From Escherichia coli (GTDB lineage: Bacteria > Pseudomonadota > Gammaproteobacteria > Enterobacterales > Enterobacteriaceae), in assembly GCF_003334315.1 (NCBI RefSeq), contig NZ_QOWR01000061.1: 28,808 nucleotides of DNA. One strand, given 5' to 3'. How positions within the stretch are numbered: the stretch's first letter is position 1; each line of letters opens with the position of its first letter. Under the pieces are notes generated by a model. That model saw nothing but the letters and a program-made list of their open reading frames with translations, was not told the origin of the DNA and searched no databases. A program made the position numbers and the translations under genes. This document shows, piece by piece, positions 21,669-24,533 of the stretch.

Positions 21669-23087
21669 GTGGGGAAACTCATGGGCAAAGGGAGAACATC
21701 GATGAGTCACATCACAACGGAAGATCCAGCAACTTTACGCCTGCCCTTTAAAGAGAAACTCTCTTACGGTATTGGCGACCTGGCCTCTAACATCCTGCTG
21801 GATATCGGTACGCTTTATCTTTTGAAGTTTTATACCGACGTTCTGGGGCTGCCAGGCACCTATGGCGGCATTATCTTTTTGATTTCAAAATTCTTTACTG
21901 CGTTTACCGATATGGGTACCGGCATTATGTTGGATTCCCGACGCAAGATCGGTCCAAAAGGTAAGTTCCGTCCTTTTATTCTGTATGCGTCATTCCCGGT
22001 CACCTTACTGGCGATCGCCAACTTTGTCGGCACACCGTTTGATGTCACCGGTAAAACGGTGATGGCCACTATTCTGTTTATGCTTTACGGACTGTTTTTC
22101 AGCATGATGAACTGCTCCTACGGCGCAATGGTTCCCGCTATCACCAAAAACCCCAACGAACGCGCCTCACTGGCGGCATGGCGTCAGGGCGGCGCTACGC
22201 TGGGCCTGCTGCTGTGCACGGTGGGATTCGTGCCAGTTATGAATCTTATCGAAGGTAATCAGCAACTTGGCTATATCTTCGCCGCCGCGCTGTTTTCACT
22301 GTTTGGCCTGCTGTTTATGTGGATCTGCTACTCGGGCGTGAAAGAGCGTTATGTCGAAACCCAGCCTGCTAATCCGGCGCAAAAGCCGGGCCTGCTGCAA
22401 TCTTTCCGCGCAATTGCGGGTAACCGCCCGCTGTTCATTCTGTGCATTGCCAACCTCTGCACTTTAGGGGCGTTTAACGTCAAGCTCGCCATCCAGGTCT
22501 ATTACACCCAGTACGTGCTTAACGATCCCATCCTGTTGTCGTATATGGGATTTTTCAGCATGGGCTGTATTTTCATCGGCGTATTCCTGATGCCTGCCTC
22601 AGTCAGACGTTTTGGCAAGAAGAAAGTTTATATCGGCGGCCTGCTGATTTGGGTGCTGGGCGATCTGCTCAACTATTTCTTCGGCGGCGGTTCGGTCAGC
22701 TTCGTGGCGTTCTCCTGCCTGGCGTTCTTTGGCTCAGCGTTTGTTAACAGCCTGAACTGGGCGCTGGTTTCCGACACCGTCGAGTACGGCGAGTGGCGCA
22801 CCGGCGTGCGTTCGGAAGGAACGGTCTACACCGATTTTACCTTCTTTCGCAAAGTGTCTCAGGCGCTGGCTGGTTTCTTCCCCGGCTGGATGCTGACGCA
22901 AATTGGCTATGTGCCGAACGTCGCACAGGCTGACCACACCATTGAAGGGTTACGCCAGTTGATCTTCATCTACCCAAGCGCACTGGCGGTAGTCACCATT
23001 GTGGCGATGGGTTGCTTCTACAGCCTGAACGAGAAGATGTATGTCCGCATTGTGGAAGAGATAGAAGCCCGTAAACGCACGGCGTAA
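21669..23087 (+). CDS. yihP: GPH-family (glycoside-pentoside-hexuronide:cation symporter) transporter YihP
   Basis: ORF of 472 codons; probable true start at internal ATG 21702 (MSHITTED...). Polytopic membrane protein, paralog of yihO. Confidence 0.8.
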   Translation: MGKLMGKGRTSMSHITTEDPATLRLPFKEKLSYGIGDLASNILLDIGTLYLLKFYTDVLGLPGTYGGIIFLISKFFTAFTDMGTGIMLDSRRKIGPKGKFRPFILYASFPVTLLAIANFVGTPFDVTGKTVMATILFMLYGLFFSMMNCSYGAMVPAITKNPNERASLAAWRQGGATLGLLLCTVGFVPVMNLIEGNQQLGYIFAAALFSLFGLLFMWICYSGVKERYVETQPANPAQKPGLLQSFRAIAGNRPLFILCIANLCTLGAFNVKLAIQVYYTQYVLNDPILLSYMGFFSMGCIFIGVFLMPASVRRFGKKKVYIGGLLIWVLGDLLNYFFGGGSVSFVAFSCLAFFGSAFVNSLNWALVSDTVEYGEWRTGVRSEGTVYTDFTFFRKVSQALAGFFPGWMLTQIGYVPNVAQADHTIEGLRQLIFIYPSALAVVTIVAMGCFYSLNEKMYVRIVEEIEARKRTA

Positions 23088-23123
23088 TAATAATAAACGA
23101 CGCCCTGCGGGGCGTTATAAGGA

Positions 23124-24533
23124 GTGATTATGTCTGACCATAATCCACTGACATTAAAACTGAATCTGCGGGAAAAAATCGCCTATGGTATGGGCGACGT
23201 CGGTTCGAATTTAATGCTCTGCATCGGTACTCTGTATCTCCTCAAATTTTATACCGATGAATTAGGGATGCCTGCTTACTATGGCGGGATTATCTTTCTG
23301 GTGGCGAAGTTTTTTACCGCGTTTACCGATATGCTCACCGGATTTTTACTCGACTCGCGGAAAAATATTGGGCCTAAAGGCAAATTTCGTCCCTTTATTT
23401 TATATGCAGCGGTTCCGGCGGCGTTAATTGCAACACTCCAGTTTATCGCCACCACCTTTTGTTTGCCGGTTAAAACGACGATTGCCACCGCGCTGTTTAT
23501 GATGTTTGGACTTTCATACAGTCTGATGAACTGCTCGTATGGTGCGATGATCCCGGCAATTACCAAAAACCCGAATGAGCGCGCGCAGCTCGCGGCTTAC
23601 CGCCAGGGTGGTGCAACCATAGGGCTATTGATTTGTACCGTGGCGTTTATTCCGTTGCAGTCGCTTTTTTCTGACTCAACCGTCGGTTATGCCTGTGCGG
23701 CACTTATGTTCTCCATTGGCGGCTTTATTTTTATGATGCTGTGCTACAGAGGCGTCAAAGAGCATTATGTGGACACAACGCCAACCGGACATAAAGCCAG
23801 TATTCTCAAATCATTTTGCGCGATATTTCGGAATCCGCCATTGCTGGTTTTATGCATTGCTAACTTGTGTACCCTGGCGGCATTTAATATCAAACTGGCG
23901 ATTCAGGTCTATTACACCCAGTATGTGCTGAATGATATTAATTTATTGTCGTGGATGGGATTCTTCAGTATGGGATGCATCCTCATCGGCGTATTACTGG
24001 TGCCATTAACTGTAAAATGTTTTGGTAAAAAACAGGTTTATCTGGCTGGCATGGTGCTGTGGGCGGTGGGTGATATACTGAATTATTTCTGGGGAAGTAA
24101 CTCTTTCACTTTCGTCATGTTCTCTTGTGTCGCCTTTTTTGGCACGGCCTTTGTAAACAGCCTGAACTGGGCACTGGTACCAGATACCGTAGATTACGGT
24201 GAATGGAAAACCGGTATTCGTGCCGAAGGTTCTGTTTATACCGGTTATACCTTCTTTCGTAAAATTTCTGCCGCACTTGCTGGCTTCTTGCCAGGCATTA
24301 TGCTGACGCAAATTGGTTATGTTCCCAACATCGCGCAAAGCGATGCGACATTACAGGGTTTGCGTCAGCTCATTTTTATCTGGCCTTGTGCACTGGCAAT
24401 TATTGCTGCATTGACGATGGGATTCTTTTACACACTCAATGAAAAACGGTTTGCATTGATTATTGAGGAAATCAACCAACGCAAAAATAAAGAGATAGCG
24501 ACAGAAGAAAAAACGGCTTCCGTAACGTTATAA
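23124..24533 (+). CDS. yihO: GPH-family transporter YihO (sulfoquinovose importer)
   Basis: 469-codon ORF, high similarity to adjacent YihP throughout; preceded by a small GC hairpin (23097..23116). Confidence 0.8.
   Translation: MIMSDHNPLTLKLNLREKIAYGMGDVGSNLMLCIGTLYLLKFYTDELGMPAYYGGIIFLVAKFFTAFTDMLTGFLLDSRKNIGPKGKFRPFILYAAVPAALIATLQFIATTFCLPVKTTIATALFMMFGLSYSLMNCSYGAMIPAITKNPNERAQLAAYRQGGATIGLLICTVAFIPLQSLFSDSTVGYACAALMFSIGGFIFMMLCYRGVKEHYVDTTPTGHKASILKSFCAIFRNPPLLVLCIANLCTLAAFNIKLAIQVYYTQYVLNDINLLSWMGFFSMGCILIGVLLVPLTVKCFGKKQVYLAGMVLWAVGDILNYFWGSNSFTFVMFSCVAFFGTAFVNSLNWALVPDTVDYGEWKTGIRAEGSVYTGYTFFRKISAALAGFLPGIMLTQIGYVPNIAQSDATLQGLRQLIFIWPCALAIIAALTMGFFYTLNEKRFALIIEEINQRKNKEIATEEKTASVTL

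Follow-up and report, generated by a model that had tools for sequence, protein, structure and literature searches.

Likely ancient tandem duplication of a GPH sulfosugar carrier behind yihP and yihO of Escherichia coli, with a conserved mRNA hairpin between the two cistrons

The sulfo-EMP pathway was reportedly described in E. coli K-12 by Denger and colleagues in 2014. In the K-12 annotation, YihP (b3877) is a putative 2,3-dihydroxypropane-1-sulfonate (DHPS) exporter and YihO (b3876) a putative sulfoquinovose (SQ) transporter. Intercistronic hairpins that stabilise mRNA, such as the REP element in malE-malF and the C(UUCG)G hairpins of phage T4, are said to have been characterised by Newbury and colleagues in 1987 and by Tuerk and colleagues in 1988. 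On the protein side, the melibiose carrier MelB (PDB 4M64, 7L17) serves as the structural model for GPH carriers. Two further types of relative are the UidB/GusB-type glucuronide transporters, whose cargo is anionic glycosides, and SftA, which is predicted to import SQ and is encoded in the sulfo-TAL cluster of Bacillus aryabhattai SOS1 (PMC7491151).

The window analysed here, the whole stretch of 28,808 nucleotides from an E. coli contig, carries the long yih (sulfo-EMP) cassette, with yihW, V, U, T, S, R, Q, P and O together with ompL. It co-encodes the sulfoquinovosidase, SQ isomerase, SF kinase, SFP aldolase, SLA reductase and CsqR, as do 72 loci, which places the pair within a sulfo-EMP cluster. 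The names yihP and yihO are those given by RefSeq annotation in near-identical E. coli genomes. Compared with K-12, the genes, their operon context and the intergenic spacer are the same, with one residue different in YihO and two in YihP; here, at the end of the contig, yihL is interrupted by IS1. The paralogy of the pair is textbook-level annotation, and current views are not overturned. The features to which the text refers are as follows.

19620..21656, + strand: yihQ (sulfoquinovosidase), upstream gene of the yihQ-yihP-yihO-ompL unit
21665..21686, + strand: hairpin between yihQ and yihP, stem of 9 bp capped by a GAAA tetraloop, followed by the Shine-Dalgarno sequence GGGAG at 21690-21694
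21702..23087, + strand: yihP coding sequence, 461 aa (open reading frame, RefSeq coordinates by homology, TIGR00792, PF13347)
22833..22835, + strand: GAT codon for YihP Asp378, the rare allele G378D (Gly in K-12)
23099..23116, + strand: intercistronic mRNA hairpin, stem GACGCCC/GGGCGUU closed by the UNCG-type tetraloop UGCG, 3' U tract absent
23120..23124, + strand: Shine-Dalgarno sequence of yihO (AGGAG), 3 nt past the hairpin and 5 nt ahead of the ATG
23130..24533, + strand: yihO coding sequence, 467 aa (open reading frame, RefSeq coordinates, TIGR00792, PF13347, MelB homology)
24543..24572, + strand: hairpin in the yihO-ompL spacer, from folds of 40 distinct spacers
24601..25293, + strand: ompL (porin), downstream gene of the yihQ-yihP-yihO-ompL unit

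The two carrier genes are adjacent and co-oriented, with a spacer of 42 nt. An earlier note had placed them at 21669-24533; the end at 24533 agrees with RefSeq, but both starts lay slightly too far upstream. The yihP start is ATG 21702 rather than GTG 21669, a codon within the yihQ-yihP hairpin stem. The yihO start is ATG 23130 rather than GTG 23124, a codon that shares bases with the Shine-Dalgarno sequence, a GAGGA/AGGAG block that is aligned in 40 spacers. The exact YihP protein with Asp378 was seen on only four contigs, and every other sequence in the comparison, 65 of YihP and 68 of YihO, has glycine at this position.

Taken as a whole, the locus is likely to be best explained by ancient tandem duplicates of one GPH sulfosugar carrier that have since specialised and that are encoded by hairpin-spaced cistrons. 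A single duplication of an SftA-like SQ carrier, before the Enterobacterales diversified, gave rise to yihP and yihO, which have remained neighbours since then within the sulfo-EMP operon yihQ-yihP-yihO-ompL.

YihP and YihO can be aligned along their full length, as the earlier note had stated: pairwise BLASTP runs end to end with 294/456 identities (64%), 81% positives and 3 gaps (620 bits, E = 0.0), and the four blocks quoted in that note (LYLLKFYTD, GPKGKFRPFILYA, NCSYGAM and YYTQYVLND) occur in both proteins. On the GPH model TIGR00792, whose cut-off is 231.35 bits, YihP scores 535.3 bits and YihO 529.0, and the matches span profile positions 1-437 of 437. PF13347 (MFS_2) covers residues 21-444 of YihP (E = 3.8e-76) and 19-437 of YihO (E = 3.2e-79), and phmmer aligns YihO residues 11-439 with MelB 3-438 (E = 1.1e-39). 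The GPH loop 2-3 motif, D..G....(x)n G-K-F-[RK]-P-[WF], is present as TDMLTGFLLDSRKNIGPKGKFRPF in YihO and TDMGTGIMLDSRRKIGPKGKFRPF in YihP, aligned with NDPIMGW...WGKFKPW of MelB. Judged by these matches, both proteins belong to the GPH family (TC 2.A.2) and are predicted to be MelB-like 12-helix MFS carriers. After the generic GPH model, the best named NCBIfam equivalog is the UidB/GusB-type model NF007353 (295 and 288 bits); these scores do not reach its cut-off of 528 bits, the identity amounts to about 38%, and the glucuronide transporters serve another pathway.

Melibiose is the substrate of MelB, as opposed to an anionic sulfosugar for YihP and YihO. The equivalents of MelB Asp59, Thr373 and Lys377 are kept in both, with an additional arginine beside the Lys377 equivalent, whereas the sugar-site residues Asp19 and Asp124 are replaced by asparagine in all 134 YihP and YihO sequences. 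Between the two carriers, 17 of the 19 binding-site equivalents are identical and the remaining two are Tyr/Phe swaps: Tyr130 (YihO)/Phe133 (YihP) aligns with MelB Tyr120, so that this tyrosine is retained in YihO only, and Tyr373 (YihO)/Phe379 (YihP) aligns with MelB Gln372. These two swaps are among 22 clade-diagnostic columns that separate YihP from YihO. A side observation, which speaks against an exporter role for YihP, is that YihP is the more conserved copy and has nearly the whole predicted binding site in common with YihO.

The cation site also departs from that of MelB. A MelB-type Na+-coupled symporter carries both helix-II carboxylates, Asp55 and Asp59; the Asp59 equivalent (Asp67) is kept, but the Asp55 equivalent is threonine in 134/134 YihP and YihO sequences and aspartate in 9/9 outgroups, and the pair does not show the complete signature. 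The common ancestor of YihO and YihP appears to have lost the Asp55-type carboxylate, which every outgroup, including the single-copy SftA-like SQ carrier, retains. Because the Asp55 carboxylate is missing while the Asp59 equivalent remains, both carriers are probably H+-coupled rather than Na+-coupled.

The earlier note had proposed that one copy imports SQ and the other handles a different sulfonated substrate. Such a specialisation is supported indirectly, by the 22 diagnostic residues with two of them at MelB sugar-site equivalents, by strong purifying selection on both genes, and by the phenotype of yihO mutants. According to PMC6278857, deletion of yihO alone abolishes growth on SQ. YihO would accordingly be the SQ importer for the reason that ΔyihO strains do not grow on SQ, and the same phenotype implies that YihP cannot substitute for it. 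Both genes are induced by SQ with a log2FC of at least 5 (PMC12608037). Literature searches returned neither a growth phenotype of ΔyihP on SQ nor a transport assay for YihO or YihP, and PMC5816610 makes no mention of yihO, yihP or ompL.

The cargo of YihP would then be another sulfonate. We slightly favour a role in which YihP exports the end product DHPS, at least in E. coli, whose cluster appears to have lost the TauE-type exporter of its relatives. TauE/SafE (TSUP) sulfonate/sulfite exporters are unrelated to YihP in fold and family but are candidate functional analogues, since a TauE/SafE gene (PF01925, E = 3e-34; an NCBIfam search with the TauE-like protein gave no match, and the family was identified by Pfam) sits exactly in the yihP slot at two loci, L048 and L070, where yihO is kept. 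Genes of this type lie, for instance, at 6996-7907 of L048, from Lelliottia, and at 3504-4379 of L002, from E. whittamii. A TauE-type gene is found in 17/72 clusters, none is present in the E. coli yih cluster, and in 15 loci it lies alongside intact yihP and yihO. These comparative data cut both ways on the exporter role, replacement arguing for it and coexistence against it.

The strongest competing explanation, which we consider possible though less probable than the specialised pair described above, is that YihP is a second importer, for example of sulfoquinovosyl glycerol or other SQ glycosides destined for cytoplasmic YihQ, with YihO taking up free SQ and DHPS leaving through a TauE-type or other carrier. 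GPH carriers are typically glycoside importers and the nearest relatives of the family import anionic glycosides; yihP always lies directly 3' of yihQ; and SQ glycosides are imported and then hydrolysed inside the cell (PMC8006165). The near identity of the two predicted binding sites also fits a second importer, and the 15 loci in which all three genes coexist are hard to square with a YihP that is merely a DHPS exporter. On the other hand, E. coli excretes DHPS stoichiometrically despite the lack of a TauE gene in its cluster, and the precise replacement of yihP at two loci is what would be expected if TauE and YihP share a job.

Between the two cistrons lies the short hairpin to which the earlier note had drawn attention. 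The structure is real, with a 7-bp stem (23099-23105/23110-23116) and the loop UGCG, and RNAalifold gives the same stem. By itself it is only mildly unusual (z = -1.9 in a 76-nt context), and its significance derives from conservation with covariation rather than from single-sequence stability. It is present in 54/65 spacers and missing from 11/65, in two genera by clean deletion. Paired cells make up 93% of the total, against 31-53% when the structure is slid; the covariation score is 0.336, compared with 0.177±0.016 in shuffles (0/500), and double changes occur in 31 cells, compared with 10±2.5 (0/500), values to be read with the caveat that the spacer sequences are related and that the structure was derived from the same sequences. 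The stem contains 15 G·U cells and no A·C cells, which points to selection on the sense-strand RNA. The hairpin therefore appears to be a genuine conserved mRNA structure. The yihQ-yihP hairpin behaves similarly, with compensatory changes at 5/7 consensus pairs and 26 G·U against 0 A·C cells. A search of Rfam covariance models over 23088-23129 (E <= 1) gave no match; the sole Rfam match is a REP/naRNA4-like element at 25297-25369.

Each cistron of the unit would be preceded by a stable tetraloop mRNA hairpin, which lies past the stop codon of the preceding gene and ahead of the Shine-Dalgarno sequence that follows. The hairpins would most likely act as a barrier to 3' exonucleases or as a processing or insulating element that trims relative cistron output, and not as a terminator. 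They resemble intercistronic stabiliser hairpins in being GC-rich, in lacking a U tract, in lying between cistrons of one operon, in carrying extra-stable UNCG or GNRA tetraloops, and in a transcript abundance that declines 5' to 3'. They differ in that they are not REP, match no Rfam family, have short stems of 7-10 bp and lie right against the Shine-Dalgarno sequence that follows; any function in common with the stabiliser hairpins is conjectural.

RNA-seq reads per kb run from yihQ (338) through yihP (150) and yihO (113) to ompL (27) (PMC12608037 Table S3). The drop from yihP to yihO is about 1.3-fold, in low-depth data with n=2 and a few hundred reads (PMC12608037 Table S3). Given this small drop, the lack of a U tract and the 11/65 spacers without the hairpin, the proposal in the earlier note that the hairpin sets differential expression is plausible but unproven, and any effect at the mRNA level would be small.

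It is unlikely that the hairpin is instead an intrinsic terminator or attenuator before yihO, a protein-bound DNA palindrome or a chance structure. It is a GC-rich stem-loop, reads per kb do fall along the operon, and in Anaerobiospirillum a canonical terminator (14-bp stem and a T8 run) occupies the corresponding position of the spacer. In E. coli, however, the sense-strand stem is followed by UAUAAGGAG rather than by a U tract, on which ground the terminator reading was rejected; a consensus scan flags the minus strand only, and the drop across the hairpin is only 1.3-fold. A sequence-specific DNA site is difficult to reconcile with a stem sequence that varies through compensatory changes, the tolerance of G·U but never A·C indicates that selection acts on the sense-strand RNA, and the controls, both slid and shuffled, exclude chance.

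It is improbable that YihP and YihO are functionally redundant isoforms that share one substrate and are maintained for reasons of dosage or of differing affinity ranges, even though their overall identity, their near-identical predicted binding sites and their joint induction by SQ would be in keeping with redundancy. The growth defect of ΔyihO strains argues otherwise, as does drug resistance in strain EV18, which is altered by ΔyihO only and not by ΔyihP. Throughout the order, moreover, both copies persist and differ from each other at 22 fixed positions. Orthologue dN/dS is ~0.03 for yihP (0.02-0.04) and ~0.05 for yihO (0.04-0.06), with three pairs that involve the Salmonella yihO open reading frame left out on account of a stop codon in the extracted codons, and both genes are under strong purifying selection; such long persistence at these values is not expected of redundant copies. 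The comparison of the paralogs that the earlier note had suggested was informative in part: in E. coli, dN is 0.26, whereas dS is saturated and undefined under NG86, so that only dN and the orthologue-based dN/dS are informative.

It is similarly improbable that the pair has become a precursor/product exchange system (SQ or SQ-glycoside in, DHPS out, by electroneutral antiport) in place of ordinary cation symporters, with the three tetraloop hairpins fixing the stoichiometry of the operon products.

The duplication in situ that the earlier note had put forward is borne out by phylogeny and synteny. In an NJ tree, YihP and YihO are monophyletic in 200/200 bootstraps, to the exclusion of all other GPH representatives; the genes are adjacent, the order yihQ-yihP-yihO is kept in about 65 of the 72 loci, and no sampled family departs from the tandem order. 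The YihP and YihO clades are separate across the Enterobacterales. Since YihO orthologues across the order are 72-89% identical, as against 64% to YihP, and dS is saturated, the duplication is ancient rather than recent, predating the diversification of the Enterobacterales. Recent gene conversion in E. coli was ruled out by a third-position identity of 0.40 and a longest identical run of 20 nt; in the Yersiniaceae, a YihP/YihO conversion tract is suspected.

The nearest outgroup (P0122) is 53% identical, with further relatives at or below 53%, and it is of the SftA type: a single glycoside symporter in a sulfo-TAL cluster whose genes run GPH, transaldolase, DUF4867, GH31, isomerase, GntR, aldehyde dehydrogenase and exporter, as in the B. 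aryabhattai sft cluster (PMC7491151). Unlike YihP and YihO, this carrier is single-copy, is accompanied by a separate non-GPH exporter and keeps the Asp55 equivalent. The next outgroup (P0125, ~38%) lies in a uxaC-uxuA-GH2 (glucuronide) cluster, a context that parallels the anionic cargo of the UidB/GusB type. An Anaerobiospirillum MAG contains both types (17/22 YihP-type and 16/22 YihO-type diagnostic residues). The order of the deepest events is soft, because the YihP clade has a bootstrap of only 62% and the trees, which are crude (NJ with Kimura distances), do not place the YihO-type gene of Anaerobiospirillum within the YihO clade. The full-tree monophyly test failed only through a single hybrid gene, L046, and through the Anaerobiospirillum sequence, which is very rich in AT.

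Independent recruitment, by horizontal gain of one copy beside the other, could account for the 16-point GC3 difference in E. coli (0.654 for yihP and 0.494 for yihO in the window, with the yihO/ompL half AT-richer), but it is effectively refuted by the monophyly of the pair, by the constant tandem order and by a GC3 step that is general and graded (yihP above yihO in 61/64 loci, yihO above ompL in 41/44) rather than an E. coli-specific foreign segment. A foreign origin of yihO on the grounds of its low GC3 was likewise set aside, the step being common to nearly all taxa.

Transport is the least characterised part of the pathway, and the locus offers several points of entry. The replacement of YihP by TauE at some loci and the coexistence of the two at others provide a handle on whether YihP is the DHPS exporter. 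The two Tyr/Phe swaps are candidate specificity determinants, and the natural YihP/YihO hybrid gene and the natural G378D allele are available test material. Finally, the three conserved mRNA hairpins may be mutated to see whether they tune the output of the individual cistrons.

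YihP and YihO can be aligned along their full length (294/456 residues identical, 64%; 81% positives; three gaps; 620 bits, E = 0.0), and the four sequence blocks quoted in the earlier note are all common to both proteins. Both belong to the GPH family (TIGR00792, 535 bits for YihP and 529 bits for YihO against a cut-off of 231), the PF13347 domain spans the full length of each, and YihO aligns with the solved structures of MelB, the structural prototype of the family (E = 1e-39). The observed paralogy of yihP and yihO is confirmed. Because the pair is already annotated as paralogous and published, with YihP described as 65% identical in sequence to YihO (preprint, bioRxiv 10.1101/2021.11.10.468170), the finding is correct yet already known. 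Gene coordinates were assigned by homology to RefSeq records:

Upstream, minus strand: yihW and yihV
Upstream, plus strand: yihU, yihT and yihS
18519-19421, plus strand: yihR
19620-21656, plus strand: yihQ
21702-23087, plus strand: yihP (ATG at 21702; Shine-Dalgarno GGGAG at 21690-21694)
23130-24533, plus strand: yihO (ATG at 23130; Shine-Dalgarno AGGAG at 23120-23124)
24601-25293, plus strand: ompL
Downstream, minus strand: yihN, yihM and yihL

The starts proposed earlier for the two carrier genes are in-frame GTG codons upstream of the annotated ATGs, one within a hairpin stem (21669) and the other overlapping the Shine-Dalgarno sequence (23124); the annotated ATGs are preceded by proper Shine-Dalgarno sequences. 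Region 21400-24800 of the window, an E. coli contig, is annotated in matching genomes as yihQ, yihP, yihO, and ompL. It matches 3,876 complete E. coli genomes over at least 80% of its length (best match 99.9%). Of 5,426 complete genomes of the species, only 3,899 carry it; genomes with and without it correspond to the published long and short yih cassettes, respectively. The carrier genomes include another class of YihO alleles with identity of only 87-89%. Further downstream, the interval between ompL and yihN contains a REP-like palindrome (25297-25369; Rfam naRNA4 match below threshold, 40.6 bits, E = 9e-5), and the 5' end of yihL is broken 12 nt inside the gene by an IS1 end (GGTAATGACTCCAACTTATTGATAG...; 28438-28808). 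The match to the reference strain ends at 28437, and the contig terminates within IS1.

The proposal of an in-situ duplication is borne out, and the event is ancient. E. coli YihO is closer to its orthologues in Salmonella, Citrobacter, Enterobacter, Cronobacter, Rahnella, Yersinia, Serratia, Pantoea, and Budvicia (72-89% identity) than to YihP (64%). Sampling one genome per species gave 72 yih loci, of which about 65 retain the order yihQ-yihP-yihO, mostly with ompL next; these come from Enterobacteriaceae, Erwiniaceae, Yersiniaceae, Hafniaceae, Budviciaceae, Pectobacteriaceae, and one Anaerobiospirillum MAG. The entire YihP/YihO (P/O) group forms one cluster among 50%-identity representatives, with the nearest full-length relatives at 53% and the next at 38% or less. 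In neighbor-joining bootstraps, P and O together were monophyletic in 200/200 replicates; the enterobacterial O clade was recovered in 88.5% and the P clade, with the Anaerobiospirillum copy in it, in 62%. The two clades have short stems (0.046 and 0.029 substitutions per site). The Anaerobiospirillum genes encode 17/22 P-type and 16/22 O-type diagnostic residues (columns fixed differently in the two clades), which indicates that the split is older than that divergence or that the cluster was transferred as a whole.

P0122, the closest outgroup, is the single glycoside symporter of a sulfo-TAL cluster whose gene order matches that of B. aryabhattai SOS1, where the carrier is SftA, a predicted sulfoquinovose (SQ) importer accompanied by a separately encoded exporter (PMC7491151). 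The next outgroup sits in a uxaC-uxuA-GH2 glucuronide cluster, in agreement with the best named NCBIfam model for YihP/YihO, a glucuronide transporter. Based on these outgroup clusters, the simplest history would lead from an anionic-glycoside carrier to a single SQ carrier and then, by one tandem duplication within the sulfo-EMP cluster, to the present pair.

Several loci depart from the common arrangement. In Chimaeribacter (L062, 9386-10819; L067, 9402-10835), the gene after yihP is a distant GPH paralog (48% identity), not O-type, that groups with the SftA-like outgroup. Ca. Symbiopectobacterium endolongispinus (L046, 7992-9422) has one carrier gene only, directly after a truncated yihQ, with P-type diagnostic residues in the first ~135 residues and O-type thereafter; it is presumably a P/O hybrid from unequal recombination between tandem copies. 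Yersinia/Serratia YihP (L045, L052; also L053, L056, L057, L065) shares only 72-73% identity with its E. coli counterpart and is O-type at 6-7 of the 22 diagnostic positions, chiefly mid-protein, which may reflect an ancient tract of gene conversion or the retention of ancestral states. Recent P/O gene conversion in E. coli is ruled out, since identity at third positions is 40% and no identical run is longer than 20 nt.

The dN/dS comparison suggested in the earlier note gave a dN of 0.26 between E. coli yihP and yihO, with dS saturated. Orthologue comparisons give dN/dS values of 0.02-0.04 (yihP) and 0.04-0.06 (yihO), and replacements accumulate 2-2.7 times faster in YihO. At least 90% conservation of the same residue in both clades is seen at 254/456 aligned columns; only 22 are fixed differently, mostly by conservative changes. 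Equivalents of the MelB sugar and cation sites are invariant and identical between the clades at 17 of 19 positions. At the first exception, the MelB Tyr120 equivalent (Tyr130 in YihO, Phe133 in YihP), all outgroups but one have Tyr, which places the change on the P side. At the second, equivalent to MelB Gln372 (Tyr373 in YihO, Phe379 in YihP), the two closest outgroups have Phe, so that the O side is probably the one that changed. Both clades differ from MelB in having Asn in place of Asp19 and Asp124 and an Arg-Lys pair in place of Val376/Lys377, substitutions that would sensibly suit an anionic substrate. Asp55, present in every outgroup, is Thr in both clades, and the Asp59 equivalent is kept; we only infer that YihP and YihO might couple H+ rather than Na+.

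The strain in the window carries YihP Asp378 (GAT, 22833-22835). The equivalent position is Gly in K-12, in 9/10 other full-length members of the 90% cluster, in the other 65 YihP orthologues, and in 68/68 YihO proteins, and the exact Asp378 protein occurs on only 4 contigs. Because the residue adjoins the MelB Gln372/Thr373 equivalents in helix XI, the allele may be hypomorphic or altered in specificity.

Specialisation of the two carriers was also proposed. Both genes are SQ-induced, and drug resistance in strain EV18 is reduced by ΔyihO only, not by ΔyihP, according to published genetics. As stated where PMC6278857 cites Denger 2014, ΔyihO strains do not grow on SQ, aerobically or fermentatively, so YihP cannot substitute for YihO and the pair is not redundant. 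This non-redundancy and the 22 fixed differences support specialisation in that sense. The literature proposal that YihP exports 2,3-dihydroxypropane-1-sulfonate (DHPS) is slightly favoured in E. coli. The "different sulfonated substrate" envisaged earlier covers this role and also the import of SQ glycosides for cytoplasmic YihQ, the sulfoquinovosidase, which we consider possible but less likely.

The distribution of TauE/SafE-family genes (PF01925, E = 2.9e-34), the usual assignment for C3-sulfonate export in sulfoglycolysis clusters, bears on DHPS export by YihP in both directions. Such a gene is present in 17/72 loci. In Lelliottia nimipressuralis (L048, 6996-7907) and an Enterobacter MAG (L070, 6981-7901), it sits exactly in the yihP slot (yihQ-tauE-yihO) and the sole remaining carrier is O-type (19-21 of 22 residues), as expected if TauE and YihP were interchangeable and contrary to glycoside import. 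Nine loci have the gene between yihQ and an intact yihP, and six, with both carriers intact, have it between yihR and yihQ (E. whittamii, Salmonella diarizonae, and four others; e.g., L002, 3504-4379; L004, 3521-4396), a coexistence easier to explain if YihP has a different role, such as SQ-glycoside import. The E. coli yihR-yihQ junction holds no TauE gene, only a 198-nt AT-rich spacer (19422-19619) between conserved flanks; judging from this comparison, the candidate sulfonate exporter was apparently lost from the E. coli cluster.

Each junction from yihQ to ompL contains a hairpin:

21665-21686, plus strand: yihQ-yihP hairpin, GAAA loop, compensatory changes at 5/7 pairs (26 G·U, 0 A·C)
23099-23105 pairing with 23110-23116, plus strand: yihP-yihO hairpin, 7-bp stem and UGCG loop in a 42-nt spacer
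24543-24572, plus strand: hairpin of the same design in the yihO-ompL spacer

The hairpin reported between yihP and yihO is real and conserved, with a stable stem-loop, often bearing a C(UNCG)G tetraloop, at the same place in 54/65 spacers; RNAalifold found the same stem. In an alignment of 40 distinct spacers, 93% of cells were paired versus 31-53% with a slid partner, double changes occurred in 31 cells versus 10±2.5 in shuffles (0/500), and the covariation score was 0.336 versus 0.177, figures that overstate independence because the structure was inferred from these same, related spacers. At one pair, for example, 23 sequences have G-C and 14 have A-U. The presence of 15 G·U and no A·C pairs indicates that the sense RNA is the molecule under selection. 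Four successive in-frame TAA codons (TAATAATAATAA) close yihP at 23085-23096, just 5' of the hairpin, and the yihO Shine-Dalgarno sequence begins 3 nt after it. No U tract follows on the sense strand (a terminator consensus scan flags the minus strand only), so the hairpin is not a canonical terminator, and no Rfam family matches it. It is dispensable; it is absent from 11 spacers of 9-25 nt, with clean deletions in Rahnella (L040 versus L039) and Pantoea (L049 versus L042/L044).

In K-12 grown on SQ (raw counts from PMC12608037, Table S3; shallow, n = 2), reads per kb of gene length were ~338 for yihQ, ~150 for yihP, ~113 for yihO, and ~27 for ompL. The hairpin may set differential expression, as suggested earlier, but the read step across it is only 1.3-fold, far smaller than at the two other junctions, and any effect at the mRNA level is probably small. 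We interpret the three hairpins as putative stabilisers or insulators between cistrons, a type of element already known in general. A GC3 staircase along yihQ-yihP-yihO-ompL (19620-25293 and 64 loci) parallels the drop in read density: yihQ is similar to yihP, GC3 is higher in yihP than in yihO at 61/64 loci (by 5 points on average and by 16 in E. coli) and higher in yihO than in ompL at 41/44 (by 9 points on average).

As a whole, the earlier interpretation of yihP and yihO is partly supported. Beyond the known paralogy, the analysis adds modest and testable points, namely the loci in which TauE replaces or coexists with YihP, the two Tyr/Phe swaps, and the change from Asp55 to Thr common to both clades. 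The three hairpins, the presumptive natural P/O hybrid, and the G378D allele are further additions of this modest, testable, and unsurprising kind.
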